Below are positions 5,615 to 57,624 of a DNA stretch of 64,000 nt, piece after piece. Both the position numbers and the translations under genes were made by a program. Under the pieces are notes generated by a model. That model made no database searches, was not told where the DNA came from, and worked only from the letters and a program-made list of their open reading frames with translations. Origin of the DNA: Bacilli bacterium (GTDB taxonomy: Bacteria > Bacillota_I > Bacilli_A > RFN20 > CAG-826); contig JAGAYY010000025.1 of the NCBI GenBank assembly GCA_017940265.1, forward strand, positions 256,711 through 320,710, in the 5' to 3' direction. The stretch's first letter is position 1; every line of letters begins with the position of its first letter.

Positions 5615-6015
5615 AAGGCATCAATCGCATTAATCAATATTTCTCGCTCATCTTTTCCTATATAAGCGTCTGTCACAATTTTCTTTAATCGTTTCTTAAG
5701 AACCTCGAGGTCTTGGATAGGGCACATCTTTATTTCATGTGTCTTCTCATCCATATAGTAACCGAGAGATTCCAACAAAGATTTCATATCATCTACCTGT
5801 TCCTCTTTAGCTACTCTCCAAAAATGAGGCCAAGTATCATCATGTCTTTTAATTCCCCACTTAGTAATTCGTGTGACAGAATCCATTTCAATTCCTGGCG
5901 GCGGATATTCACATCTAGATCCCAAGCCTTCATAGATAGCATAGTACGGTTCCCCAAAACTATCGTTATCTCTGTTCACTAAGATCTCACCTTTCTTATA
6001 ACTTAGAGGCCTCAT
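5611..6015 (-). CDS. hypothetical protein, tandem paralog 1 of 3
   Basis: N-terminus YKKGEILV..YAIYEG and C-terminus LKKRLKKIV..EREILINAIDAL are shared with the next two ORFs. Confidence 0.7.
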   Translation of the reverse strand: MRPLSYKKGEILVNRDNDSFGEPYYAIYEGLGSRCEYPPPGIEMDSVTRITKWGIKRHDDTWPHFWRVAKEEQVDDMKSLLESLGYYMDEKTHEIKMCPIQDLEVLKKRLKKIVTDAYIGKDEREILINAIDAL

Positions 6016-6410
6016 ACAAGACTATCGATTGCATCTGTTAATATAGCTTTATCGGTTTCAGACCTGTCAGACTCGACAACAAGTTCTAATAGTTTATTCT
6101 TAAGAACTTCCATATCGAAAATTCTATTAAGTCTAAGTTCACCTTTTAGATTTAAGTGATAACCCATTTCTGTCAAAATATCAAGGGCAGTTTCTAATTC
6201 CATACCCTTAGCACTTTTCCATTGATGGTTCCAGATTTTCATATCTCTCCAGACCCTACCAACAGAATCGAGTAAATATGCAGAACTTAGCATTTTCCCA
6301 TGAGCTTCACCAATTTCCTCTTGATAGATACAAAACCTAGGCCCTGTTGTTCTCGGAGGGTCAGCTGGTTGGATCAATATCTCTCCCTTCCTGAATTTTG
6401 CTGATTCCAT
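6012..6410 (-). CDS. hypothetical protein, tandem paralog 2 of 3
   Basis: FRKGEILI..FCIYQE..LKNKLLELV..DKAILTDAIDSL. Confidence 0.7.
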   Translation of the reverse strand: MESAKFRKGEILIQPADPPRTTGPRFCIYQEEIGEAHGKMLSSAYLLDSVGRVWRDMKIWNHQWKSAKGMELETALDILTEMGYHLNLKGELRLNRIFDMEVLKNKLLELVVESDRSETDKAILTDAIDSLV

Positions 6411-6813
6411 CTAGTAAGTATTGTTTTTCTGTCTCTTCAATATCAGAACACAAGATAGCTTCAAATAATCTAGACTTAAGGTCCTTGGGAATACCAGGTC
6501 TAGGAATACTTCGATATTCTCCCTCAATCCATACCTTCCCTTGATCCTTAAGATATCTATTTATAGTTTCTACCTCTCCTGGACAAGCTAACTTCCAATT
6601 TGGGACATAAGTACTCATCCATTCCTGTCTACCTCCATCCCAAATATGATCTACCCAACCACGATTCTTTTCTTTTTTACTGTAACCCTGAAAAATACCA
6701 AGAACATGGATTGGATTCTCAATACCAAGATCTATATCAGCAGAAACATAATCACCTTTCTTGAACCCTGTATGTACTGTAGACATATACACTCTCAATT
6801 TCTGGTTCATCAT
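6361..6813 (-). CDS. hypothetical protein, tandem paralog 3 of 3
   Basis: FKKGDYV..LGIFQG..LKSRLFEAI..EKQYLLDGISKI. Confidence 0.65.
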   Translation of the reverse strand: MMNQKLRVYMSTVHTGFKKGDYVSADIDLGIENPIHVLGIFQGYSKKEKNRGWVDHIWDGGRQEWMSTYVPNWKLACPGEVETINRYLKDQGKVWIEGEYRSIPRPGIPKDLKSRLFEAILCSDIEETEKQYLLDGISKIQEGRDIDPTS

Positions 6814-29554: not shown

Positions 29555-30043
29555 ATGATAAAAGAATTATTATTGTTAATTTGGATTTTTATTATTGATT
29601 ATCCAAGGAAACATAGACTCTTAGATATTCACCCAGAAACTAAGTATTTTCCTATCGGAAAAACTAAAGAGAGAATGTGGGCAGGTTATGTAATTCATAG
29701 AGGAGAGTTTGAGCAGTGGTATGATAATAGAGTTAGGTGGCTTCATTTAAACATACATCTCGCCCAAGCCAGAACACACCATGTTACTTGGATTGGTTGG
29801 TACTTAGATTATTTCTTTGAAACATTGATAGGAGCACTTTACCTATCATCCTGGAAAGGTGGCTCTCTAACAAACCGATATGAAGTCGAAGCATTATCTA
29901 ATGAGGATGACATGTACTATCTCTCTAACTATAATTCAGAGAGTATCAAGAGATATAGAATTCCACTATCCCAGAGAAAAGAATTATGGGAATCAGTTGG
30001 AAAAGATAAAACCAAACTAAAAGAATTAATTAAGTCAATATGA
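29555..30043 (+). CDS. hypothetical protein (HExxH-less paralog of 34781-35272)
   Basis: ..W.GWYLDYFFETL..RYEVEAL..DDMYY aligns with ..WIKYYWGYLIEWL..KYEVEAY..DDTY. Confidence 0.7.
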   Translation: MIKELLLLIWIFIIDYPRKHRLLDIHPETKYFPIGKTKERMWAGYVIHRGEFEQWYDNRVRWLHLNIHLAQARTHHVTWIGWYLDYFFETLIGALYLSSWKGGSLTNRYEVEALSNEDDMYYLSNYNSESIKRYRIPLSQRKELWESVGKDKTKLKELIKSI

Positions 30044-30504
30044 TATTAATAAGAACATTCTCGAAAACTTGGGAATCTCTTAAGACTCCTGAGGAACGCT
30101 CCAAGAAAGCTAAAGAACTTCTTGAGGCTAGAAAGAAAATCAACACCAGAAAAGAAAACCTTAAGACTAAATACGCCGAAGATTTAGAGAAAGCGGGTCT
30201 TGGTGAATTGAAAGGCAAAGATGGTAAACGAATTAATACCAGAGGCGTTGATGAAAAATTTAAATCTGATATGGCTGATCTGAAGAGATATCAAGAATCT
30301 ATTCAGGATACCACCAAACGCAAACCTTCCTTCAAACCTAAAACCACCCCTAAAATAAACCCTGAGACTCTCAAAAAAGTAGGTAAGGGAGCAGGAGTTG
30401 TTGCCGGAGTAGTGGGAGCTGGTCTGGCTGGAAAAGCTGTTTATAAGAAAGTAAAAAATAAGAAGAGAGAAAATGAAGTTCGTGGGAGGTTTAATACAAA
30501 ATGA
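30040..30504 (+). CDS. leader-bearing basic protein with Gly/Ala-rich hydrophobic segment
   Basis: N-terminus MILIRTFS; GKGAGVVAGVVGAGLAGKAVY. Confidence 0.7.
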   Translation: MILIRTFSKTWESLKTPEERSKKAKELLEARKKINTRKENLKTKYAEDLEKAGLGELKGKDGKRINTRGVDEKFKSDMADLKRYQESIQDTTKRKPSFKPKTTPKINPETLKKVGKGAGVVAGVVGAGLAGKAVYKKVKNKKRENEVRGRFNTK

Positions 30505-32176: not shown

Positions 32177-33883
32177 ATGAAGAAAATAATACTATTAATC
32201 TTAACTACTCTTCTTCTCATTGGCTGTATCAAAGGTCCTGAATATAATGAGTCCGAGGTAGTTAAGGGAAATATAGAAAATATATTTGGGAATACTTTTG
32301 ATCCTGAACATGATTGGAGCAGCATAGTCTCTGGAGAAATTACGGTAACTCCACTTTCAGGATCAACAGAAATCCAGATATTAGCTTATACAGAAGATGG
32401 GACTCTTAAGATATTAACTAAATCAGAAGGAAATTCAGAAACAAAACTTAAGTATGATGCTCCTAATACAATGATAGCTCTTTTTGTAGCTTGTATCTCT
32501 GAAGGTGGTGGTTATTATATAAAAGAAATAAAACCTACAGATAAGATAGTTTCTTTTCTTATGCCATTATCAACAAGAGCTATAACTCGTAGTAGTATGG
32601 ATGGGAGTAAAAGACTAACTATAATTGGAAGTGAAATATCCTATGAAACTCAGCGTGGATATCCTGGGTTTGAGTCTGAGATATTATATCAGTTTAATTC
32701 AGTCCCTTATACTGTTTCTAATTATGATCTTTCCACCTTAGTAATCCTGAGGTCTATTATATTTACTTATCTTCCAAATGGTAGAAAATATAATAATCTA
32801 CCTCAAATAAAAGAAAGTGGTTATTATAATGAAAACTGTTATGCTATCACAACCGGAAAAGAACCTATCATAGTTTCACCTATTTATAAGAATGATGGTG
32901 GATATCATGAGGTAGAAACTTGTGAACTATATTACTATTATTTCAAGGATCCAGAAACTGATATTAAATCCCTTCCTAAGTATAGACTAATTAAACTTAA
33001 CGAATGTATTAAAGGTGATGATGTCCTAGAAAAGCATTGTTCATATAAACTTGTCTATTGGAAGAAAGATGGAACTGGCACTTATGATTTCCCTCCTGGA
33101 TATAAGATTGGGTTTATGTTAAGGAGTAATTATAAGAATGACGTTAAGAAAGGTGAACTCTATTTTGATGGACGTCTAAATACTGAAATCAATAAACATG
33201 GCCATTTTGCTTCCTCTAAGTTAGGTCCAGTAGATCCCAGAATGTGTTGGTTAAGTATAAATCATATGATGCTAATGTGTTGTGAAGGAGGAACGGATTC
33301 AGATTTCAACGACGTAATTCTAGAGGTCTCAGGTGGCGTAGAGCCAATTGAAATTCCTATCACACCTGAATACAATTCTTATACTTTTCTTTTCGAGGAT
33401 CAACTTTTAGGTGACTATGACATGAATGATGTTGTACTTAAGGCAGAAAGATTAAGTGACACTAAAATTAAATATTCACTTTTGGCTTGCGGAGCCTGTG
33501 ATGAACTATATCTTAGAAACTTAGGAGGTAAGGTATTAAATGAAGGTACCGAAATTCATAGGATCTTAGGCTCGGAGGGATTTATTAATACTGTTTCTAA
33601 GAGCATAGAACCTATTACAGAAATTATAACAGTACCTAAGACGTTTAGTTTTAATAATTTGGACGAACAGGTTTATATATATAATAAAACAACCAACCGT
33701 GAAATCAGGATGTCCCAAAAAGGGCAAGATCCTCACGGCATAATGATCCCCACAGATTTCAAATGGCCTAAGGAGAAAATATGTATTAAAGATGCCTACC
33801 TCGGATTTGGATCTTGGGGACATAATAAAATCGATAGCATCGGATGGTACTTAAGTCCGGTGGAAAATAATGTAATAAAATGA
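32177..33883 (+). CDS. surface lipoprotein with LruC/DUF4842-type C-terminal domain
   Basis: Signal plus lipobox LLLIGC. FEDQLLGDYDMNDVVLK and DSDFNDVILEV match the D-x-D-[FYM]-N-D-[VL]-V signature of LruC-domain proteins. Confidence 0.8.
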   Translation: MKKIILLILTTLLLIGCIKGPEYNESEVVKGNIENIFGNTFDPEHDWSSIVSGEITVTPLSGSTEIQILAYTEDGTLKILTKSEGNSETKLKYDAPNTMIALFVACISEGGGYYIKEIKPTDKIVSFLMPLSTRAITRSSMDGSKRLTIIGSEISYETQRGYPGFESEILYQFNSVPYTVSNYDLSTLVILRSIIFTYLPNGRKYNNLPQIKESGYYNENCYAITTGKEPIIVSPIYKNDGGYHEVETCELYYYYFKDPETDIKSLPKYRLIKLNECIKGDDVLEKHCSYKLVYWKKDGTGTYDFPPGYKIGFMLRSNYKNDVKKGELYFDGRLNTEINKHGHFASSKLGPVDPRMCWLSINHMMLMCCEGGTDSDFNDVILEVSGGVEPIEIPITPEYNSYTFLFEDQLLGDYDMNDVVLKAERLSDTKIKYSLLACGACDELYLRNLGGKVLNEGTEIHRILGSEGFINTVSKSIEPITEIITVPKTFSFNNLDEQVYIYNKTTNREIRMSQKGQDPHGIMIPTDFKWPKEKICIKDAYLGFGSWGHNKIDSIGWYLSPVENNVIK

Positions 33884-34230
33884 AAATTATACGACTTAAA
33901 CAATTCTCTAAGAAAGAGGATGCTGCTAAAACTGCTGCTGTTGCTGGGTCTGTAGTTGGGCTTGGTGGTGCAGCTACTTCTCTCGGTGCTAAGGTTGCCG
34001 AACAGAAGACACAAAAAGATATTGCCGATGCTCTTAAGAAAATCACAGGCAATGAAACCGGTATTAAAGGAAAGAAAGCCCTCTTAGACAAGGCTTCCGA
34101 GCTCAGCAAGAAAAAGGGCCTATTAGAGAAGATAGGTAAAAAGGCTGGCAAAATTGGTAAAGTAGGTCTTGGTGTATCTGTTGCAGGTGGAGCTACCTAT
34201 AAGGCTCTTAAGAAAAACGACAAGAAATGA
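33880..34230 (+). CDS. leader-bearing Gly/Ala-rich protein
   Basis: MKIIRLKQFS; AAVAGSVVGLGGAATSLGA; VGLGVSVAGGA. Confidence 0.7.
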   Translation: MKIIRLKQFSKKEDAAKTAAVAGSVVGLGGAATSLGAKVAEQKTQKDIADALKKITGNETGIKGKKALLDKASELSKKKGLLEKIGKKAGKIGKVGLGVSVAGGATYKALKKNDKK

Positions 34231-34781: not shown

Positions 34782-35272
34782 TGAGGTTCTTTAAAGAAAT
34801 CTGGACATTTATTCAGCTATTCTTTACTGGAATGGATAAGAGTAAGACTGAATTAGAGCCCTGGGGAGTTAAGTATATACTTTCTGGGAAATACAAATAT
34901 ATGTGTTGGTGTGGTAGAGTATTATTCCACCTAGAGAAACCAGAAGAAGGTATCTTGGTAGGTGAGGATAAAAATCATGAGACTCTTCACCTAATACAAG
35001 CTCATGATTCCGGTTCTTGGATTAAGTATTACTGGGGTTACCTCATTGAATGGCTAAAAGGTGGTGGTCCGTTCTCTAAAAAGTCTTATTATGTCGGAAA
35101 ATATGAGGTAGAGGCATATGCTAAGGAAGGAGATGACACCTATATCTCAAGGAGACCAGCCGGAAACGTAGATAAATTCATTCTTAAAGATAAAACCCAA
35201 GAATGGAAGAACGGTCGGAAGAGTTCTTATCTCTTCAAACTCTACATTAAAGAAAAATTTAAAGATATATGA
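34781..35272 (+). CDS. putative HExxH zinc-metallopeptidase-like protein
   Basis: DKNHETLHLIQAHD (HExxH), plus downstream YEVEAYA glutamate block. Confidence 0.6.
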   Translation: MRFFKEIWTFIQLFFTGMDKSKTELEPWGVKYILSGKYKYMCWCGRVLFHLEKPEEGILVGEDKNHETLHLIQAHDSGSWIKYYWGYLIEWLKGGGPFSKKSYYVGKYEVEAYAKEGDDTYISRRPAGNVDKFILKDKTQEWKNGRKSSYLFKLYIKEKFKDI

Positions 35273-35583
35273 TTATCAAACGCTTTTCCCGTTCTAATGA
35301 AGATCTTGAGAAGTTAAGTGATTATGAACTTACCAAGATAATTAAGAAAGGAGAAAATAGACATAAAACAACTCGGGATTTAGGCACCGCATCTGGACTA
35401 GTAGGGGCAGCTATAGCGGGAAACCTAGCTAAGCGAGATCTAATCAATGCGGCTGGTGCTGGTTTTATGGTTGGTGCGATTCCGGGTCTAGTAGCTGGTA
35501 TTAAAAGTGGTAAAAAGAAAAAGGAAGAGGCTGAAACTGCTACTAAAATTCTAAGAAAAAGGAGAAATAAAAATGATAATTAA
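35269..35583 (+). CDS. leader-bearing Gly/Ala-rich protein
   Basis: MIIKRFS; SGLVGAAIAGNLA..AAGAGFMVGAIPGLVAGI. Confidence 0.7.
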   Translation: MIIKRFSRSNEDLEKLSDYELTKIIKKGENRHKTTRDLGTASGLVGAAIAGNLAKRDLINAAGAGFMVGAIPGLVAGIKSGKKKKEEAETATKILRKRRNKNDN

Positions 35584-35989
35584 ACGTCAGAAAACATTTG
35601 GAGTTAAATCAAAAGCTCTCGGTTTATTAGCCCCAGGTTCTTATCAAGCCAAAGAAGCTGCTAAGTATGGTTACGATGAGGACGAATATAAGAAAAAAAG
35701 AGCTGGATATGCACTTAAGGGACTTTTTGCACCAGGAACAAGTACCTATATGAAAAAGAAAGCTCAAGAAATGCATGAGGAAGGTAAATCTCAAAAAGAA
35801 ATTCGTAACTTTCTTGAAAATAAAGGAAAGCATAAGAGTTCTGGACGTGTGGCTGCTGGAGTTGCTGAAGCCTTAACAGGTAGTGCTGGTGGTGTTGGTC
35901 ATACAATTGCTCAAGGTGTCGGTATCTATGATAAAGTAACCGGACATAGAGTTAAATATAAGAAGAAAAATGCTAGTCCTAAGAAATAA
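35573..35989 (+). CDS. leader-bearing protein
   Basis: MIIKRQKTFG; VAAGVAEALTGSAGGVGHTIAQGVG. Confidence 0.7.
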   Translation: MIIKRQKTFGVKSKALGLLAPGSYQAKEAAKYGYDEDEYKKKRAGYALKGLFAPGTSTYMKKKAQEMHEEGKSQKEIRNFLENKGKHKSSGRVAAGVAEALTGSAGGVGHTIAQGVGIYDKVTGHRVKYKKKNASPKK

Positions 35990-45005: not shown

Positions 45006-45524
45006 ATGAAGGTAATACGACAAAATAAGGTTATTATCGATGCTCTTAAGGGGATTGATACAACGAAAATTAACTTGGATGATCGAGAATTTCATTTTAT
45101 AGACGAAGTAACTCAGGGGCCAGGTTATACTAAGGTTTGTATTTCTGGTGGTCTTAATGGAAGAGGTATCTGGTCTAACTATTTCGAAGTCCTGGCTAAA
45201 GTTATGTTTCAGATAGAACTTAGGTTTCCTGACGCTTTTGTTGTATCACTGGAGAATGATACTGCGGATGATATTTTCTATCTCTACATAGGTATTCCGA
45301 ATGATAATGAGGAACGTATTTTCTCTAAGGCATCCGGACGAGAAACGGTACCTGACTCTATCGTTAAGAAAGTTAAAGCAGGTGAAGGAGTAATTCATCA
45401 GTATAAAGGAAAATGGAGAATTGTTAGTATGAAAACTAACCCTCCCACTTTTTGGAACGCTGAGTATGAGACTAGGGAAAAAGCTGAATCTGCGCTTAAA
45501 GCATATCAAGCAAATAAAAGATGA
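45006..45524 (+). CDS. hypothetical protein
   Basis: ATG 45006 (MKVIRQNKV..); the track start at 45000 is a TTG. Confidence 0.65.
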   Translation: MKVIRQNKVIIDALKGIDTTKINLDDREFHFIDEVTQGPGYTKVCISGGLNGRGIWSNYFEVLAKVMFQIELRFPDAFVVSLENDTADDIFYLYIGIPNDNEERIFSKASGRETVPDSIVKKVKAGEGVIHQYKGKWRIVSMKTNPPTFWNAEYETREKAESALKAYQANKR

Positions 45525-46882
45525 TAACATTTAAAGAAAAAACAACAGATCTCCTAGACGAAAAAGACTTCCTCCCTAAGGCTATAGATAGTTTTTTCAA
45601 GTTTAGGGGAAGGGAATTGTACTCAGAACCAATCTCCTCTACAAAGCCGTCGGGAACAAAATTGGCCGGACTCTCTAAGGGCAAATTTTCTACTCCGGAG
45701 GTTAAGGGGATAATTAAGGAAGTAACTATAATACATCCAGCTTCTCACCGTGAATATAAGGCTTCGGAGTTTGTGTATACAGGAAAACCAAAGGACTCTA
45801 CTCTTGATTTAGGTTTCAAGGTATCGGTGAAAGAAGGCTTAATAGTACCTGAAGAATTTGAATACTATAATTTCCTGATGTACACTTTAGGAAAATACAC
45901 AGGAGATTATGACTACAAATTTGTTATGGTGGGCTCTAATCCCCCTAAGCCAATTATCACTATTCCAAACTCAAAGACTGGATGGATAAATCTAGTAAGG
46001 GCATTGACTGAATTTTGTGTTTCCCTTAAGTTATTCTTCGGGATTAAGTATTATGTTTGGTTAGTCCCCGAGGAAGTTCCAGAAGCAAAGAATTTCTCAG
46101 GACTTGCATCTTTTATACCTACTCTTACTTCACTGGTCTATAAAACAATAGTACTCCCTATCCTTAAAAAACGTGTAGCTCTTAAGTGGGAAAAATCATT
46201 AACTACTAAATACTCTTCTTCTCTTCTCCCTAAGCTTCTCAAGAAAATAAAAGGAGATTGGGGAGATAAACTGATATTAGGGGATTGTACGCAGCAGTCA
46301 TATTATCTCAACCTAACTAAAGGAAAACAAGCAGCAGAGGTTAGGAAGGTATTTACGAACAAGAAATTCCTAGAAGATGAAGGGATAGATCCAGAGAGAA
46401 GAAGATGTCCAGTTGATTGGTGGGCATTTGCAGCTTCGAAAGAAAAAGATCTGATAATGATTTCTGACCTAGATCCTGTTCCTGCTATTTTCCATGAGGT
46501 TGGACATTTCTTAGCTAACAATGAAAATCTATTAGGTCCCATTCAGAGAGCTTCCCATCGTGGAGTATTCAGTGATGGATTCGTTTCACTAGCCTCATTT
46601 CTTTTAGGTACTGGAGGGGGTATAGCTGGAAGCCCGGTAGGAGAAATATCAGGGTGGGTAGTTTCTATACTTCTTAAGTTCCCTACCTTGTGCACAGAAT
46701 TTATGGCTTCGTGGTATGGACTCCAGCTTATGAAGTCGTTAGGTGCTACTGATAAGGACCTGACAGAAGCTAAGTATGCATTTAAGACAGCATTCTCTAC
46801 TTATGTACTATCTGCCTTAGGAAAAGCTGGCAATTCTGGATATGGTCGTCTATTAGGTGAAGGAATTAAACGATATAAATAA
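45521..46882 (+). CDS. leader-bearing HExxH zinc metalloprotease with C-terminal membrane segments
   Basis: MITFKEKT..; PAIFHEVGHFLA; hydrophobic LASFLLGTGGGIAGSPVGEISGWVVSILL. Confidence 0.7.
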   Translation: MITFKEKTTDLLDEKDFLPKAIDSFFKFRGRELYSEPISSTKPSGTKLAGLSKGKFSTPEVKGIIKEVTIIHPASHREYKASEFVYTGKPKDSTLDLGFKVSVKEGLIVPEEFEYYNFLMYTLGKYTGDYDYKFVMVGSNPPKPIITIPNSKTGWINLVRALTEFCVSLKLFFGIKYYVWLVPEEVPEAKNFSGLASFIPTLTSLVYKTIVLPILKKRVALKWEKSLTTKYSSSLLPKLLKKIKGDWGDKLILGDCTQQSYYLNLTKGKQAAEVRKVFTNKKFLEDEGIDPERRRCPVDWWAFAASKEKDLIMISDLDPVPAIFHEVGHFLANNENLLGPIQRASHRGVFSDGFVSLASFLLGTGGGIAGSPVGEISGWVVSILLKFPTLCTEFMASWYGLQLMKSLGATDKDLTEAKYAFKTAFSTYVLSALGKAGNSGYGRLLGEGIKRYK

Positions 46883-47826: not shown

Positions 47827-49488
47827 ATGAAGAAGAGTGAAAATATGATTCAAAAGATGTTCGGATCATTCGCAATCGGATCAAGTCGTGTACCAATCCG
47901 AAGTAATGTATATCGAACAGGTGGAGGGTATTCGGCAATTGGCGGAACTGGTGGAGCGTCGATTTTCGATAGCTTTGACAGAAAATCTCCACTTCTCGGA
48001 AATGCTAGTCCGAGTAATCGTATCTCTGGGTATATCGATCGAATTGGAGAGCTCAAGGGATACCAACTTTTAGATATCTCGAAGCTTGCAACTAATTTCT
48101 TCGCCGACTATGTAACGAATTTCTTAGTCGATGGAAATGGACAGCAACTCGTGACTATATTAAATGAAGAGGATGATTCAACCGACGAACAGGTGACTGA
48201 GCGTATTAACAACATCCTCTCGAAAGACCTGAAAATTCTAGACTGGATTCGAGATCACTTACAGGATTATATATTCTATGGTGAGTACTTCGGAATGTTA
48301 CAGAAATCTCAGGATGAAACTGGTCATACGAAGTTCAGAATTGAGGAACTGCATGACCCGATTTGTGTAATTACCAAGAAAAAGCGCAATTCTGATGGTG
48401 AGATGGAAGAAACTTATCTTGCCAGAGGTGAAGATGGTGGTATTTACGAGATTCCAAGAAATGAGATCGTCTATATTGCCTCTCAGAACTTGCGCTTAAT
48501 AAATGACCTCTCTGACGAATGGAAAGAGAATGAGAAGAAACAGAAAAAACTAATCCTTAAGGGTGAGAGCAATCGAGATAAGGTACTTAAGTCAGAATCT
48601 TATATGACCTCTGAACCTCTCCTGTATGCTCTAATCCTGAAGGTTAAGGAGTTAGTTATTAAAGAGTTATTAGTTAGCCTGATCTCTCTTCGTGACTTAT
48701 CTTCAGTACAAATTTTTCTCCTTCAGTTCGATAAATCCATTCCCCTAGAAAGTGCTAATGAATTATGTGCTAGAGCCACTAAGTTAGCTAATAATACAAA
48801 CGAACTTGGTAGCTTTCTGTCCAGTCAATTTGATGTGATTTCCTTTATTGAAAACACCTTGACCCAGAGTGCTAAATTCGTTCCTGACTATAACTCTACT
48901 CTGGGAGGTAAGAATTCAATGCTCCCCTTAGATAAGCTCACTGATAAACTCTTAGATATTATGCAGACCCTTGATCAATGTAAGGGTAATATCTTAGGTC
49001 CCCTTGGTCTTCCTACTACTATGATGGATTCAACCTCTGGTAATAAATGGCAAGTCCTTCAACAATCAGAACGTGCTAATTCAAGAGTTACCGGATTTAT
49101 GTCAGGGATTAAGGATTCTATGATTTCCTTAGTTTGCACGATCTATCGAACCCTGTATAATGATGAACTTGATCCTGGACTTATTAAACTTCATATCGCT
49201 GAGAAAACGAGCGTAGAGTATAATAATCAGATCAACCAATCAGAATCAGTAAGTGGTTTAGTTCAGGGTATAACTGGTATTGTTCAGAATGCAATTCAGA
49301 CTCTTGAAACTGCTGCCCCACTCATTGATGGAAAAGCGTTCTTGAGTTATATTCAGACACTTATCAAGAACATAGACTCTAATACCGGTGACTTAATAAC
49401 AGAGGAATCACTAGAATCATACCTTAAGTTATTACAGGCTAAGGTTGACTCACAGTACGAACAATTAGGATTAACACCAGATGAATAA
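47827..49488 (+). CDS. putative portal protein
   Basis: About 550 aa. First gene of a T4-like head module (portal, small proteins, protease, scaffold, MCP). Called from position and size only. Alternative start at 47845 gives MIQKMFG, which matches the leader. The track start at 47812 is a TTG. Confidence 0.55.
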   Translation: MKKSENMIQKMFGSFAIGSSRVPIRSNVYRTGGGYSAIGGTGGASIFDSFDRKSPLLGNASPSNRISGYIDRIGELKGYQLLDISKLATNFFADYVTNFLVDGNGQQLVTILNEEDDSTDEQVTERINNILSKDLKILDWIRDHLQDYIFYGEYFGMLQKSQDETGHTKFRIEELHDPICVITKKKRNSDGEMEETYLARGEDGGIYEIPRNEIVYIASQNLRLINDLSDEWKENEKKQKKLILKGESNRDKVLKSESYMTSEPLLYALILKVKELVIKELLVSLISLRDLSSVQIFLLQFDKSIPLESANELCARATKLANNTNELGSFLSSQFDVISFIENTLTQSAKFVPDYNSTLGGKNSMLPLDKLTDKLLDIMQTLDQCKGNILGPLGLPTTMMDSTSGNKWQVLQQSERANSRVTGFMSGIKDSMISLVCTIYRTLYNDELDPGLIKLHIAEKTSVEYNNQINQSESVSGLVQGITGIVQNAIQTLETAAPLIDGKAFLSYIQTLIKNIDSNTGDLITEESLESYLKLLQAKVDSQYEQLGLTPDE

Positions 49489-50338: not shown

Positions 50339-50650
50339 ATGTATATACGTAGAAAAGCATTCTCAGTAGCAACGATTGATGGTGAGGAAAAGTTATTCTC
50401 TACTAAGGATCGTGCCAAGAAAGCAGCTGAAGGAACTGCCGTAGCTGGTGGTGTAGCTGCTGTTGGTCTTGCTGGTGCTCATAAACTGGGTGATAAGATT
50501 AAGAATAAGATTGCCAAAGAAACTGAAGAAGCTGGTTATAAATCAAGAAAGAATCAGAAACTTGAGAAGGTAGCCGAAAAACTTCAGAAACCAGGTGAAA
50601 AAGTATCTAAAGGTCTTGCCAAGGTTCTTAAGAGAGTTACTAAGCGATAA
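50339..50650 (+). CDS. leader-bearing Gly/Ala-rich protein
   Basis: MYIRRKAFS..EEKLFS..; GTAVAGGVAAVGLAGA. Confidence 0.65.
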   Translation: MYIRRKAFSVATIDGEEKLFSTKDRAKKAAEGTAVAGGVAAVGLAGAHKLGDKIKNKIAKETEEAGYKSRKNQKLEKVAEKLQKPGEKVSKGLAKVLKRVTKR

Positions 50651-51943: not shown

Positions 51944-53176
51944 ATGCGTTGTAAGGTACGTGTTTTAAAATTTGGTACCAAAGCAAGTGATGGTAGCTTA
52001 ATCGGAGAATCTGTAGTACGGAGTTATCTAGAAACCCCGGAATGCATCGAGGATCTAAAAGCTCACCGCATGATAGGATCATTAACTCACAGAGTTCGTA
52101 ATATATCAGCACTAGGGTATTCAAGTGAAACGGCGTCAAATCTTAAGAAAACTATTGCCAAAGATGATGGACTTCTTTTGATTGATAGTAATTGTCCACC
52201 CACTCACTATGTTGATAAATTATGGATTGAAAATGGAGCACTTTGGGCCGAGTTACAAATTTTTGATGAAGAAGGATTTGATGATCAAGCTGTTCAGGCC
52301 ATTCGTAGACTTAAATCTCTCTTGAAATGTACTCAGATAGGCATTTCGAGCGTAATACTAGGCTTCTGGTCGGGCATGAAAGATGGTGTAGATGTTTTAG
52401 AGAAACTTGTACGCTGTAAGGGTATAGACTTTACTTTAAGCCCCAGTTTTCCTGGCAGTTATGTTACCGATGTCATGAATGATGATGGAACTGTTATTGA
52501 AAAAACTTACAGTATTCCACAAGAAGAAATGTTCGAAGGATATAGAGTAAAAACTTTCTCTAGTCTTGAGGGATTTGATATTAATGTTCCAAAAACTTCA
52601 AAGATTGAGAATAAGTTTACTATTCTAAAAGCTAAGGAATTTAATTCAATAACAGATCTTTCAACTGTTAATGATGAATGTGAGCCTAAACAGAAAGAAT
52701 TCACAGTAGCTTCAGTAAATGATCAGATTAGGATGACGAAACTTAGTCCTCGTATTAGGTTTAGACGTATAATCCTAGAATATCGTCAAGTCCTTAAGCA
52801 ACATGGTGGTATAGAAAAGATTGATGAAGAAACTTTGAGAATTATGAAGTCTTTGTTTGCTAATGAAATTCTTAAATTACTGCAGGAAGCTACTCCCCAG
52901 GTAATGAAAGGCAAACAACTTAATGCATTACTTGGCGCTGCATCTCTTAGTGCCGAAGTCAGAAAGGCTTGTAACTCTCTAAACCTTCCACTCAGATTAG
53001 CTTTGATGGAAAATAAGAAGCAAGGTTTTGTAAGTAAGGCTAGATATCAGAAGATTCAAGATGCTTATAATGACTTTGTTCATAGCATTTTGGCCTATGT
53101 ATTCGAAACTCCAACCACCAAGAAGCTACAGGAAGAGGAACTTAATCCAGAAGAAGGCAATGAAGGAAAGAATTAA
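51944..53176 (+). CDS. prohead (maturation) serine protease, T4 gp21-like, with C-terminal coiled-coil extension
   Basis: By eye, blocks MIGSLTH (His), LWIENGALWAELQIFDE, QIGISSVILG (Ser) and IDFTLSPSFPGSYV parallel the gp21 blocks ..GELNHP.., ..MWWKGNDVYGRARVIEG.., ..PGVSSRGLG.., ..VDAVWGPSAPDAWV.. as I recall them. Sits just upstream of the scaffold and MCP. Confidence 0.7.
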   Translation: MRCKVRVLKFGTKASDGSLIGESVVRSYLETPECIEDLKAHRMIGSLTHRVRNISALGYSSETASNLKKTIAKDDGLLLIDSNCPPTHYVDKLWIENGALWAELQIFDEEGFDDQAVQAIRRLKSLLKCTQIGISSVILGFWSGMKDGVDVLEKLVRCKGIDFTLSPSFPGSYVTDVMNDDGTVIEKTYSIPQEEMFEGYRVKTFSSLEGFDINVPKTSKIENKFTILKAKEFNSITDLSTVNDECEPKQKEFTVASVNDQIRMTKLSPRIRFRRIILEYRQVLKQHGGIEKIDEETLRIMKSLFANEILKLLQEATPQVMKGKQLNALLGAASLSAEVRKACNSLNLPLRLALMENKKQGFVSKARYQKIQDAYNDFVHSILAYVFETPTTKKLQEEELNPEEGNEGKN

Positions 53177-53963
53177 ATTATTTTCAGACCCCACCCCAAA
53201 AGAGAGGATTAAGCTTTTCTCTAAGGATGGTAGTGGAACAAAAGTAGTAGTTTGTGCAGATTGTGGGTTTAAACAAGAGACCTCCGCCCATACTACTAAT
53301 TTGCTATGTCCTAAATGTGGTAGTACCCGGTTTAATGTTCTTAGAGCTGTTTATAGCCCTGAAGTATCACCGGAGAAAATCGAAGAACAGGAATGGCAAA
53401 AAGAATTTAATGAAACAAGTGATGAGTTAGAACTTAGATTAAAGGAATTTTCGGGGACAAGTCTTAGTGCTGCCAACTTCGAAAAGGAATTTAGCGTCAT
53501 AGGAGTTACTTCCGAAGATCTTCAAGCGAGAGGTTATGCTAATACCGCTGAAGATGGAAGTATCGAGATTCCTAGCGATGCCTTCTTAATGTCGAGACTC
53601 TTCAGTAATATCAAGATCAGCATAACTAAAACGCTTGAACTAGATCCGGAAGTAATGAATGACGCTTCTACTGGCATATCTAAACTGGAAGAGGTCAGTG
53701 ATCTAAGTCCAAAGAGTATTGCCATAATCAAGAAAGTTCATGGATTTAAAGTCCCTGAGATAGATAAAGAGTCTTGGTTGGCTGATTCTGGTATACAAGG
53801 TGATTTGAAACTCGAGTTTGGTGGTCAGAATATGGATACACCAGAATTTCAATCATTACTAGCAGAAAGATATCCTGATGCTCCGGAGGATCTCTTTGAA
53901 GTTTTAAAAACAAAAGGTATAATCCGAGACACCGGAGATAACAGATTAGAAATCATAAAATAA
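53160..53963 (+). CDS. zinc-ribbon protein with duplicated leader
   Basis: MKERIKLFSDPTPKERIKLFSK..; CADCG..CPKCG; start at ATG 53160 (longest ORF starts at 53061). Confidence 0.7.
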   Translation: MKERIKLFSDPTPKERIKLFSKDGSGTKVVVCADCGFKQETSAHTTNLLCPKCGSTRFNVLRAVYSPEVSPEKIEEQEWQKEFNETSDELELRLKEFSGTSLSAANFEKEFSVIGVTSEDLQARGYANTAEDGSIEIPSDAFLMSRLFSNIKISITKTLELDPEVMNDASTGISKLEEVSDLSPKSIAIIKKVHGFKVPEIDKESWLADSGIQGDLKLEFGGQNMDTPEFQSLLAERYPDAPEDLFEVLKTKGIIRDTGDNRLEIIK

Positions 53964-53966
53964 ATT

Positions 53967-56075
53967 ATGGCTAATACACGTTTAATGGATCGACTCTTTA
54001 GTGCTACAGAAAATAAAGAGGAAGATGTTTTGAATCAGACCGCTCAGGAAATCGAGAAGGCTAAGGAAAATGGCTCTCACGATACGGATGAGTTGGCCTA
54101 TGAAAAGGTAGACGATAATAAAGTTAAAGTTACCGATAAGGAGAATGGTGAGGTTACTATGATCGAGAATTCAGAAGATGGTTACGATATCTATAACCCT
54201 GAGGACGTCTTAGAGGATGAGCAGCCCAAACTTGAGGGATTCTTGCATCCGGAAGTGGATGATCAGGTTGTTCCTGGTGAGCAGACTAATCCTACCGAGA
54301 AAGTCGAAGATCATGAAAATGAACCTATCTCTCCAAATGTAGAAGGTGGTGGTCTCAATCCAGAGGCAGGCCAGGAGAAGAGCGTTGAGGAAACAGCAGC
54401 TGAAGGTCCACAGCCTGAGGAAGGTAAGTGCCCTGAGTGCGGTAAGGAATCTTGTGAATGCAAAAAGGAAGAGCCCAAGAAGGAAGAGGAAGAGAAGAAG
54501 TTCTCTGTATATACTTCTAATTCTGCTGTTCATCGTATCTTCAGTGATCAGGAGTTCTGTGAGCGTTTGTTCTCAGAGGTTCTTGAATCAACTGGTGATG
54601 TTGAAGATGTTACTAAGGTTGGTAACCTCAAGATTGAGAAGACTGCAGACAATGAGCTGATTGTAACTGACTGTGCAACTGGTGATGCTGCTAAGGTATC
54701 TCTCGATGCAGAAGAGCTTTCTGTGACTGAACTTGAGAAGAAGACATTCTCTGAGGAGGGTTCAGAAGGTATTAATCAGCCAGATCAATTTGAACCTGTT
54801 CATGTAGTAGGTGTTGATACTGGTAATCATCAGTTAGTTGACTCTAGTGCATATGGCGCAGAGGAGGCTCAGGAATTAGCTAACCGCCTTACAGAGGCTG
54901 GCGTAGACGGCGTTCAGGTAATTGAAGATGAGGAGGCCGCTCGTGATTACGCTATCGACCTGTTGAATAATCTCGGTGTTAATAATCCCGAGAATGTTGA
55001 AGAGCCCGAAGAGGTTACTTTCAGTGACACAGAAGGCAAGGAATATAGCGTATTTGTTACTCGCTATTTCTCTAATAACACTATCTTCATGGATCGCTTA
55101 TTCAGTGAGTCTGCTAATGGTGTTGAAACCAGTCAGGCTAAGATTGAAGATGCTCTGAAGAGTGGTGACGAGATTGAAACCGATAGTGAAATTGTTACTC
55201 CAATTAGTGCTACAGAAGCTGTAGTCGAAGACAAGGATAATGACCAATTCACGAAGGTTACTCTCGTAGATGACGAACTTAAGCTTGATCCTATTTCTAA
55301 GGATGAAGCAGACGAACTTTTAGATGACGTCGCTGTTTCAGAAAAAGAGAAGGATTTCTCTGATATCTGGACAAATGAGGCTCGCACTAAGTTCTTCTCT
55401 GAAAATGAACCTATGACTGCTTACATGGAACGTCTATTCTCTGATGAAGAGAAGGAAGAACTAATTGAGGAAGCAATCGAGAAAGGTGAACAGAATGAGA
55501 CCGATACTATTGTTATTACTCCGGTAGATGCAGAAACTGCTATTATCCAGGATAAAGGAAATGGTGAGTTTACTAAAGCTGTTCTGTCAGAGGAAGATAT
55601 TGATCTCGCTCCTATCAGTGAGGAAGAAGCTGATAAATTAACTGAGGAGAAGAAGGTCGAGGAAGAGCCTAAGAAAGAAGAGAAAGAGGAAGAAAAGGGA
55701 TTCTCCGTACTCACTAAGTGGTTCACTCAGGTTGTTCCTGCACAGGCACAGCCCGTAGTAGCTGCTCCTCAAGCTGCTCCAGTTCCCGTTGCTCCTGCAG
55801 TTGATGAGAATGGTCAGCCTGTAGTTCCTGCTAATGAAGTACCTAGCGTAGAAGCTATCGAAGACAAGGCTATCGCTGCTGTTCAGCAAATTCAGGCTGC
55901 TGCTGCTGAAGCTGAGGCTCAGATTCTTAATGCTAAGGCTGCTCCGGTGGAGAATGCAGAAGTAGATCTTCAGGAAGCTCAGTTCTCTGAGAAGAAAGAC
56001 GAAAAGACTTTCTCTGCTAATGAAAACGATTCTCTCGTTTCTTGGCTGAACGGCATTTCTAAATTTCGTCGTTAA
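53967..56075 (+). CDS. acidic scaffolding-like protein with internal repeats
   Basis: 702 aa and highly acidic, immediately upstream of the MCP. Four RLFS-initiated modules; Ala/Pro/Gln-rich C-terminal region. Confidence 0.65.
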   Translation: MANTRLMDRLFSATENKEEDVLNQTAQEIEKAKENGSHDTDELAYEKVDDNKVKVTDKENGEVTMIENSEDGYDIYNPEDVLEDEQPKLEGFLHPEVDDQVVPGEQTNPTEKVEDHENEPISPNVEGGGLNPEAGQEKSVEETAAEGPQPEEGKCPECGKESCECKKEEPKKEEEEKKFSVYTSNSAVHRIFSDQEFCERLFSEVLESTGDVEDVTKVGNLKIEKTADNELIVTDCATGDAAKVSLDAEELSVTELEKKTFSEEGSEGINQPDQFEPVHVVGVDTGNHQLVDSSAYGAEEAQELANRLTEAGVDGVQVIEDEEAARDYAIDLLNNLGVNNPENVEEPEEVTFSDTEGKEYSVFVTRYFSNNTIFMDRLFSESANGVETSQAKIEDALKSGDEIETDSEIVTPISATEAVVEDKDNDQFTKVTLVDDELKLDPISKDEADELLDDVAVSEKEKDFSDIWTNEARTKFFSENEPMTAYMERLFSDEEKEELIEEAIEKGEQNETDTIVITPVDAETAIIQDKGNGEFTKAVLSEEDIDLAPISEEEADKLTEEKKVEEEPKKEEKEEEKGFSVLTKWFTQVVPAQAQPVVAAPQAAPVPVAPAVDENGQPVVPANEVPSVEAIEDKAIAAVQQIQAAAAEAEAQILNAKAAPVENAEVDLQEAQFSEKKDEKTFSANENDSLVSWLNGISKFRR

Positions 56076-56163: not shown

Positions 56164-57624
56164 ATGAATAGCAATACATATTATTTGTCTATGATGCAGC
56201 AGCCCGCTATGATGGATGCTCTGCTTGCAAGCTCGGTTAGTGCTGAAGACGCTAATCTCCGTTCACGCGAGTATGCTAAGATGTTCTCTCGCAATGAAGA
56301 CCTGAAGAATGTATTTGGTCTTAATAACAGTGCTAATCTGATGCAGAAGACTTTCTCTGGTTATGCAGAGACTCCGCTGCTGAGCACGCAGTATTTCAAT
56401 GCTTCGGTTGCTTCTTATGTAAGCTCTTTCGCTGGCTATATGTCTATCGAGCGCGACTTTGATCAGCCTAATGGTCTGTTCTATTGGTTCGACGTTCTCG
56501 GTGTTACCGATATGCGTTCAATTATTCCTAACCTGGGTCCGGATCAGTATCAGGACATTCAGAGCATGGGTGGATTTGAACTCGAGATTACTCCTACTGC
56601 TAATGCTGACTATAGCGCACTGGTAGGTCGTAAGATTATCCCCGGTACTGTGCGTATTAAGATTAAGAATGCTACTGAGGCTTTCGAGCTGATTGATAAT
56701 GGTCAGGGTGCTTTCATGGCTGTTGCTAATAAGATCACTACTGGTACTGTTAACTATCTGAACGGTCGTATCGAGTTCACACTGGCTACTGCTCTGAGCG
56801 GTGATGCTAATACTGAGTCTATCGTTATCGTAGGTAAGGAAGACGTTACTGGTACTCCTTGCAATACCGTAGGTGCAAGCAATGCTCATACTAATGACAA
56901 GCGTTTCATTGCTAAGATGCAGCAAATTGGTCTGTCTACAGTTCCCGATATGCTGGTTGCTGAGTATAACATTGCAGCTCTCGGTGCAATGAAGAAGGCT
57001 ACTGGTGCTGATATGGCTACTTTCCTGTTCACCAAGCTGCGCGAGCTCTATACCAAGATGATTAACTACAAGCTGGTTAGCACTCTGGAAGAGGGTTATG
57101 TAGGTAACACTATGAATGACCTGGATCTGAGTGTTGCATCTGTTGGTGTATCTAGCAAGTTCCACGATTATCGTTCTCGCGTTGATGTATTCGATGCATA
57201 TCTGATCAACGTTGAGAGTGCACTGGCTACAAAGGCTGTTAAGGGTGTTAACACAACTGCTTATGTTGTTGGTAACCAGGCTGCTAACCAGTTCCAGAAG
57301 GGTGGTATGATTGGTAAGTTCGAGAAGAATACCAAGATGACCTACATCAACGACCTGCTTGGTTGGTACGACGGTGTTCCCGTGCTGCGTTCTACCGATA
57401 TCGCTGAGGCTCAAGGTGAGGGTACATTCTATGCTATCCACAAGACCGCTGATGGTCAGATGGCTCCTCTGGCTCGTGGTATCTACATGCCTTTGACAGA
57501 TACTCCTACCATTGGTAACTATAACAACCCAACTCAGATGGCTTCTGGTATCTACTACCAGGAGGGTACTAAGTACATGGCTCCTGAGCTGGTTCAGAAG
57601 GTTACCTTCAAGTACGGCATCTAA
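56164..57624 (+). CDS. major capsid protein (gp23-like position)
   Basis: 486 aa. Follows the protease and scaffold. Codon usage differs sharply from its neighbours (CTG/CGT/GGT-rich), as expected for a highly expressed gene. RSIIPNLG resembles the gp23 RRAIPNLIA block. Flanked by strong hairpins. Confidence 0.75.
   Translation: MNSNTYYLSMMQQPAMMDALLASSVSAEDANLRSREYAKMFSRNEDLKNVFGLNNSANLMQKTFSGYAETPLLSTQYFNASVASYVSSFAGYMSIERDFDQPNGLFYWFDVLGVTDMRSIIPNLGPDQYQDIQSMGGFELEITPTANADYSALVGRKIIPGTVRIKIKNATEAFELIDNGQGAFMAVANKITTGTVNYLNGRIEFTLATALSGDANTESIVIVGKEDVTGTPCNTVGASNAHTNDKRFIAKMQQIGLSTVPDMLVAEYNIAALGAMKKATGADMATFLFTKLRELYTKMINYKLVSTLEEGYVGNTMNDLDLSVASVGVSSKFHDYRSRVDVFDAYLINVESALATKAVKGVNTTAYVVGNQAANQFQKGGMIGKFEKNTKMTYINDLLGWYDGVPVLRSTDIAEAQGEGTFYAIHKTADGQMAPLARGIYMPLTDTPTIGNYNNPTQMASGIYYQEGTKYMAPELVQKVTFKYGI

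Follow-up and report, generated by a model that had tools for sequence, protein, structure and literature searches.

In phage T4, many unrelated head proteins carry short N-terminal leaders that end in the motif of the gp21 prohead protease, L/I-x-E, and the scaffold is studded with such sites (the system comprises IPI-III, Alt, gp67, gp68, gp22 and gp23). In the jumbo phages phiKZ, 201phi2-1 and SPN3US (gp175/gp245), many head proteins are likewise cut at a three-residue motif, in their case S/A/G-x-E. Here we describe a locus in a stretch of 64,000 nucleotides ('the window'; positions 256711-320710 of contig JAGAYY010000025.1), in which a 267-residue zinc-ribbon (Zn-ribbon) protein from the head module of a phage begins with two copies of the peptide KERIKLFS. 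We propose, with a probability of about 0.6, that these units are tandem copies of the head-protein processing and targeting motif of this phage clade, carried on a cleavable propeptide. The general form of the motif is [KR]-x-F-[SG], extended in the Zn-ribbon protein to R-x-K-L-F-S.

The likeness to T4 extends to a protease of the same fold among the head genes, to a predicted capsid propeptide of ~65 residues and to the gene order, which runs portal, small proteins, protease, scaffold, capsid. Unlike in T4, the motif is not L/I-x-E, the leader of the Zn-ribbon protein is tandem (2-4 copies) and the protease has a long helical C-terminal domain; PHROG and fold searches found no T4 counterpart of the Zn-ribbon protein. 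The window phage shares its jumbo size with phiKZ and its kin, together with the cutting of many head proteins at a three-residue motif, which is established there and predicted here. It can also be likened to phiKZ and SPN3US in the multiple cuts within propeptides, the self-processing of the protease and the Ser at P1' that are proposed for it, Ser being a residue that SPN3US prefers at this position (PMC10052503). The propeptides of the phiKZ group, however, are mostly long (111-254 residues) rather than tandem 8-mers, their motif is different, and no sequence relationship was detected. Herpesvirus assemblin sites, (V/L/I)-x-A'S (an apostrophe marks the cut), have Ser at P1'. The assemblin-scaffold precursor of these viruses resembles the protease of the window phage in fold, although the match is weak, and in its layout, in which a helical scaffold-like domain is attached to the protease through linkers that can be cleaved, here by prediction. 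The likeness is confined to structure: P1 here would be Phe and not Ala, P3 would be basic, and the window virus is bacterial. Finally, several head proteins of phage 80alpha have in common a short N-terminal leader that ends in Phe and a small residue (PMC5744158). Those leaders copy a motif of the host protein L27, and a cysteine protease of the host cleaves them, whereas the motif of the window phage has no L27 match, occurs in many internal copies and is accompanied by a protease candidate of the phage's own. What is new here is a set of predicted prohead-protease substrates that have a different code and, for the Zn-ribbon protein, a tandem leader.

A doubled leader conserved as peptide

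The features of the Zn-ribbon gene are as follows; conservation of the leader refers to a family alignment of 37 members with 38-67% identity, and confidence is given as the predicted local distance difference test (pLDDT) of the structure model.

53160..53963, + strand: gene of the Zn-ribbon head-module protein, 267 residues, defined by its open reading frame (ORF), homologues, alignment and model
53163..53186, + strand: leader unit 1, KERIKLFS, residues 2-9; R4, L7 and F8 nearly invariant; pLDDT <50
53187..53198, + strand: linker DPTP, residues 10-13; variable in length and sequence among relatives
53199..53222, + strand: leader unit 2, KERIKLFS, residues 14-21; R16, K18, L19 and F20 invariant, S21 nearly so; pLDDT <50
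53253..53321, + strand: zinc ribbon, CxxC (C32/C35) and CxxC (C50/C53); all four Cys invariant
53442..53453, + strand: internal KEFS, K95-S98, followed by invariant G99; ends helix 89-97 in the model
53484..53495, + strand: internal KEFS, K109-S112; F111 invariant, S alternating with G in relatives
53595..53606, + strand: internal RLFS, R146-S149, just before the C-terminal domain; F148 invariant, S149 nearly so; low-confidence residues 154-162 follow

Read from the window DNA, the N-terminus is MKERIKLFS-DPTP-KERIKLFS-K, and the leader peptide that holds both units, with F8, F20, K6 and S21, is MKERIKLFSDPTPKERIKLFSKDG. Positions 53160-53225 consist of ATG, then AAG GAA AGA ATT AAA TTA TTT TCA for unit 1, GAC CCC ACC CCA for the linker, AAA GAG AGG ATT AAG CTT TTC TCT for unit 2, and a final AAG. 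The two units are thus identical at 16 of 24 bases and differ in seven of their eight codons, every difference being synonymous; the spellings given in the original prediction were exact. A repeat search detected no direct DNA repeat at 53160-53225, and the RNA around the gene start did not fold better than shuffled sequence (z = +0.42). The three additional x-F-S sites that had been pointed out in the same protein, KEFS (F97), KEFS (F111) and RLFS (F148), are also real. Together with the leader they make five [KR]xF[SG] sites, where 0.28 are expected. Because none of 2000 within-protein shuffles reaches five sites, and because the doubled unit is found in nearly every relative, a chance origin of these sites is excluded.

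The leader depends on the choice of 53160 as the start codon, and this choice is supported, because the homologues in the alignment begin at the same M-x-R-x-K-L-F-S and because the ATG of 10 related loci lies next to, or within a short overlap with, the stop codon that ends the upstream protease gene. The longest in-frame ORF starts at 53061, inside that upstream gene, and has no counterpart in relatives.

Fifty-five metagenomic homologues of the Zn-ribbon protein were found, some of them on contigs of 200-365 kb, as well as 80 loci in IMG/VR. Only 86 representatives reach E<=1e-10 among 1.84 billion proteins, and the search results therefore indicate that the family is narrow and clade-specific; tblastn found no match among 50,697 phage records. 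Both units are conserved in the related genomes, as had been anticipated. Among 72 distinct metagenomic N-termini, 64 have two R-x-K-L-F-S units and five have three or four. A regular expression finds a single unit in the other three, but in two of them the first unit is degenerate, and only one is clearly single. Distant representatives of the family often have three or four units, and units in relatives are spaced by 6-16 residues, most often by 11-12. The array also appears to be more persistent than the Zn ribbon itself, because three members (L067, at 5974-6636, P0094 and P0099) have lost the ribbon and kept the units: each has three or four N-terminal copies of R-x-K-L-F-S, with a helical region directly after them.

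Codons of the core R-x-K-L-F-S were compared in 23 distinct related loci. Arg is encoded in five ways (AGA, AGG, CGT, CGG and CGA), from both the AGR and the CGN box, Leu in four (TTA, TTG, CTA and CTT), Phe by both TTT and TTC, and Ser by AGT and by TCN, that is, from both of its boxes. Within single genes, positions of the two units that hold the same residue are differently coded in 71 of 124 cases, and a relative at 62% identity has three ERIKLFS units in three spellings, none of which matches those of the window. Since R-x-K-L-F-S is kept while its codons vary freely, these results bear out the proposal of the original prediction that selection acts on the peptide and not on the DNA. They argue equally, with the lack of a DNA repeat and of RNA structure, against a role of the leader as an mRNA or initiation element.

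The synonymous differences between the units are nevertheless not purely neutral. Across the 23 loci, G or C occupies the third position in 0.78 of 6 codons in unit 1 compared with 1.96 in unit 2 (Wilcoxon p ~2e-4, which is overstated, as the sequences are related). Arg in the first unit is AGR in all 23, whereas in the second it is CGN in 13. The AT-richness of unit 1 fits the usual constraint on codons near a start, acting on top of selection for the peptide. A type IV prepilin leader was also considered and rejected, given that the Phe is preceded by L/x and not by Gly, and is followed by Ser and polar residues with no hydrophobic segment.

From the N-terminus the protein consists of the tandem leader, the Zn ribbon, a helical region with the internal motif sites, and a conserved C-terminal domain. 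Its structure model has a mean pLDDT of 77. Residues 1-25, which include both units, lie below 50, predicting a disordered and hence accessible leader. The earlier identification of a Zn ribbon holds: the four invariant Cys form two CxxC knuckles, the model has strands at 28-62, and local fold matches are to the Zn ribbons of MCM and HypA. The Pfam family zinc_ribbon_6 scores 21.9 bits, under its cut-off of 27, and PHROG and Pfam scans of the protein and its neighbours returned generic Zn-ribbon matches only. At 94-98, 108-112 and 145-149 the motif forms the end of a short helix; beyond these helices, residues 161-200 are modelled at a pLDDT of 55-73 and residues 201-267 with confidence (81-93). 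Fold searches of PDB and BFVD gave no significant match to the whole protein, and we do not rely on weak winged-helix-like similarities (E > 0.1).

The motif across the head module and the gp21-fold protein

The head module, at 47.8 to 63.2 kb of the window, consists of 21 ORFs on the plus strand. The following features belong to the Zn-ribbon gene's immediate neighbours.

51944..53176, + strand: upstream gene, 410 residues; gp21-fold domain at ~1-180, disordered linkers with motif sites, helical C-terminal domain
53967..56075, + strand: gene of an acidic scaffold-like protein, 702 residues, which begins MANTRLMDRLFS; 14 F-S sites, 12 of them [KR]xFS
56164..57624, + strand: major capsid protein gene; tblastn match to the putative major capsid protein of Escherichia phage IME392
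56278-56289, + strand: capsid motif KMFS, residues 39-42, within the N-terminal 65 residues
56347-56358, + strand: capsid motif KTFS, residues 62-65, within the N-terminal 65 residues

The motif is strongly concentrated in this module. The density of [KR]xFS is 5.09 per 1000 residues there compared with 0.36 elsewhere in the phage, a 14-fold difference, and the 30 sites of the form [KR]xF[SG] compare with 3.3 expected, a number that none of 500 shuffles reaches. In 13 of the 21 ORFs the N-terminus is a leader, 6-14 residues long, that ends in the motif, and the motif recurs in the N-terminus of the capsid protein, in the scaffold, in the protease and in small core proteins. The T4 motif [LI]xE is not enriched in the head module (the ratio of its density there to that in the rest is 0.62), and the corresponding ratio of 1.5 for [SAG]xE is accounted for by acidic composition. 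By sequence, then, the KERIKLFS units are instances of a motif common to the whole head module. A literature search for the motif strings returned nothing relevant, and none of the papers in the library that was searched mentions the motif.

The sites persist in relatives. In 11 diverged relatives the Zn-ribbon protein has 4-7 of them, the scaffold 6-14 and the protease 2-5 (except in L071, a relative whose two protease ORFs are truncated and have none), while the capsid protein always has two. The residue after the Phe is S, G, A or C. Across 12 relatives, the capsid protein residues K39, F41, S42, K62, F64, S65 and G66 never vary. When the capsid family was aligned with T4 gp23 by hhalign, only a local match of 21 columns resulted, so that the propeptide boundary is not mappable onto T4, and a sequence search of PDB with the capsid protein returned nothing relevant.

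The Zn-ribbon protein is not alone in having doubled N-terminal sites: the small head-module protein at 50339-50650, which starts MYIRRKAFS...EEKLFS, has two, conserved in relatives at ~6 and ~19. The portal-sized protein at 47827-49488 begins MKKSENMIQKMFGS, and the portal-sized ORFs of several relatives have K-x-F-G sites at residues ~10 and ~45, which suggests that the portal may be trimmed too. Outside the head block, small ORFs at 30040-30504, 33880-34230, 35269-35583, 35573-35989 and from 36710 onward start with leaders of the type MII..R.K.F[SG], and possibly encode further packaged proteins.

The gene upstream of the Zn-ribbon gene overlaps its start by 17 nt. In the AlphaFold model of its product (mean pLDDT 69) the N-terminal domain has the fold of a prohead protease: the top three Foldseek matches are chains A-C of T4 gp21 (5JBL; E 3e-4 to 6e-4, probability 1.0, template modelling score normalised to the target 0.56), and weaker ones (E 0.2-0.8) are to the proteases of varicella-zoster virus, human cytomegalovirus and Epstein-Barr virus. 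Aligned by hhalign (E 0.0022), an invariant LTH49 falls on H85 of T4, and S134/S135 of a GISS sequence on S140/S141; H49, H88 and S135 are invariant in relatives. The fold, the His and Ser columns and the invariant residues thus mark this protein as a candidate gp21/assemblin-fold protease of the head module. Its motif sites fall at 188-203 and 235-266, in linkers that are modelled with low confidence and that join the protease domain to the helical C-terminal domain, an arrangement to be expected for self-release or self-processing. This layout is herpesvirus-like, and the helical domain, of ~130 residues, may act as a scaffold.

The phage genome and its host

The contig that contains the window is 376,162 bp long and ends with a repeat of its initial 141 bp, which identifies it as the complete genome of a jumbo phage, assembling as a circle. 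It was binned with a bacterial metagenome-assembled genome (MAG) of ~1.36 Mb, which encodes Prp and an L27 that starts MLFKLNLQLF'ASKKG. No penicillin-binding protein transpeptidase was found in the MAG, and only one weak match to a Mur ligase, and it is probably wall-less. The phage, on the other hand, has genes for a muramidase (177 bits) and for an Amidase_3 protein, and a Shine-Dalgarno motif precedes 5% of its long ORFs, compared with 16-46% on other contigs of the MAG. Because Shine-Dalgarno usage differs, because genes for wall synthesis are lacking and because the phage carries a muramidase and an amidase, the MAG is probably not the host, and the phage is probably mis-binned.

A related phage contig of 370,971 bp (CASEGV010000001.1), found in a scan with the capsid alignment and with a capsid protein that is 85% identical, sits in a second bin with Prp, labelled 'uncultured Mycoplasmatota', in which L27 starts MNFLKLDIQLF'AHHKG. 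The two bins that hold the phage clade represent different bacterial lineages, and the phage is absent from 300 other genomes of the MAG's order. That both contigs were binned with small, low-GC genomes of Bacillota type may be either an artefact of composition or a hint at the host. A host from the Bacteroidota would be in keeping with Shine-Dalgarno motifs being nearly absent; the Bacteroidota promoter box TAnnTTTG gives no support, as it is not enriched in the 60 nt upstream of phage ORFs (0.56 vs 0.53 per kb).

Proposed processing and its alternatives

These observations are consistent with a model in which the motif, placed on a disordered N-terminal propeptide of ~21 residues, would be recognised and cut by the gp21/assemblin-fold protease encoded directly upstream and probably translationally coupled to the Zn-ribbon gene. 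The cut would probably fall between Phe (P1) and the small Ser or Gly (P1'), so that P3-P2-P1 would be [KR]-x-F; the P3-x-P1 grammar of T4 (L/I-x-E) and of phiKZ/SPN3US (S/A/G-x-E) would be kept, with its residues changed. In the Zn-ribbon protein the leader would be cut after F8 and F20, leaving a product that starts SKDGSGTK, and the cut capsid protein would give a peptide starting SGYAETPLLSTQYF. Before cleavage, the leader may bring the Zn-ribbon protein into the core of the assembling prohead, like the capsid-targeting sequence of T4, and having two or more units could provide redundancy or avidity. With sites 97, 111 and 148, the protease could also divide the rest of the protein into three parts: the Zn ribbon, a helical spacer that resembles a scaffold, and the conserved C-terminal domain. 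The number of copies, which varies and yet is rarely below two, suggests that avidity or redundancy is under selection.

Several points weigh against this model. For this uncultivated phage, cleavage at the motif is a proposal drawn from the analysis of sequences and models. The upstream protein is matched to proteases by fold only: it has no Pfam match, including to Peptidase_S77, and no PHROG match, sequence and profile searches of PDB with it found no protease, and the hhalign probability for its match to T4 gp21 is only 13%. Sites 97 and 111 lie in confidently predicted helices and may therefore be structural or poorly accessible. A propeptide of 21 residues has no obvious need for two cuts, and cleavage alone would leave the number of units unexplained. 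Finally, a second candidate protease is encoded in the window at 45521-46882, an HExxH protein that could be the enzyme.

The units could instead be docking motifs that are never cut, that is, short linear motifs binding the scaffold, the inner surface of the capsid, the portal or, as a non-substrate, the protease, with tandem copies adding avidity for an oligomeric partner. We regard this as unlikely. A copy number that ranges from 1 to 4 and is almost never below two points to multivalency more readily than to a simple cut site; where the model is confident, the motif is often found at the end of a helix; and it occurs in many copies in the scaffold-like protein, scaffolds being proteins that work via repeated weak contacts. 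However, the motif sits just where known prohead proteases cut, namely ~65 residues into the capsid protein, at the extreme N-termini of many small proteins and in the linkers of the protease, and the strictly small residue that follows the Phe (S, G, A or C) is typical of a requirement at P1'. Binding and cleavage are, moreover, compatible, as the targeting sequence of T4 is itself cut off.

It is improbable that the cutter is the HExxH protein rather than the gp21-fold protein. The former is metallopeptidase-like, with a weak match to Pfam Zn_peptidase_2 (E 3e-4, below the cut-off), bears a leader of its own and is encoded in the same late plus-strand block. Against it, the gene of the gp21-fold protein holds the canonical place of a prohead protease, between the genes for small core proteins and those for scaffold and capsid, and its product has conserved motif sites in its own linkers; we also know of no tailed-phage head maturation system that uses such a metallopeptidase.

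Cleavage of the leader at L-F'S by a Prp-type protease of the host is less credible still. Prp, which trims the N-terminal extension of L27 and also acts on Staphylococcus phage 80alpha, where it processes capsid and scaffold proteins, cuts between F and A (PMC5744158), and the L27 cleavage motif is MLxx(D/N)LQ(F/L)F'A(S/H)KK (PMC9405229). Both bins that hold the phage clade encode Prp together with an L27 whose leader ends LF'A, and the L-F followed by a small residue does resemble K-L-F-S. Yet no head protein contains L-[QN]-x-F-[AS], so that mimicry of L27 is not seen; P3 in the phage motif is K/R and not Q, and P1' is S/G and not A. In addition, the MAG is an unlikely host, the bins are of different lineages and the 300 other genomes of the order lack the phage, which has a candidate protease of its own. 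One last reading, in which the repeat has no function as a peptide and is either the product of a recent duplication of DNA or an element of the mRNA or of translation initiation, can practically be discarded: the AT-rich unit 1 seen across relatives does point to some constraint on start-proximal codons, but the units share only those 16 bases, neither a DNA repeat nor RNA structure was detected, and relatives of 35-66% identity keep the peptide invariant while drawing on different codon boxes.

We return to the model of cleavable, motif-bearing leaders. A bolder form of it, for which we would offer somewhat less than even odds, is that the code of the protease has switched to basic-x-Phe'Ser and that 1-4 copies of R-x-K-L-F-S make up a tunable avidity tag, which would load the Zn-ribbon protein, possibly a DNA-binding one, into the prohead and later be trimmed off, the number of repeats itself being under selection.

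If the motif is indeed a code for cleavage and targeting, the proteome of the mature virion would become predictable for a clade of uncultivated gut phages with genomes of ~370 kb, including which proteins are packaged, where they are trimmed and which are degraded. The gp21/assemblin proteases would then include a third specificity class, with an aromatic residue at P1. Like the targeting sequence of T4 before it, the short tag could be put to the test as a signal for loading capsids, and the tandem leader of the Zn-ribbon protein would provide the cleanest natural experiment on whether the copy number of such a tag matters.

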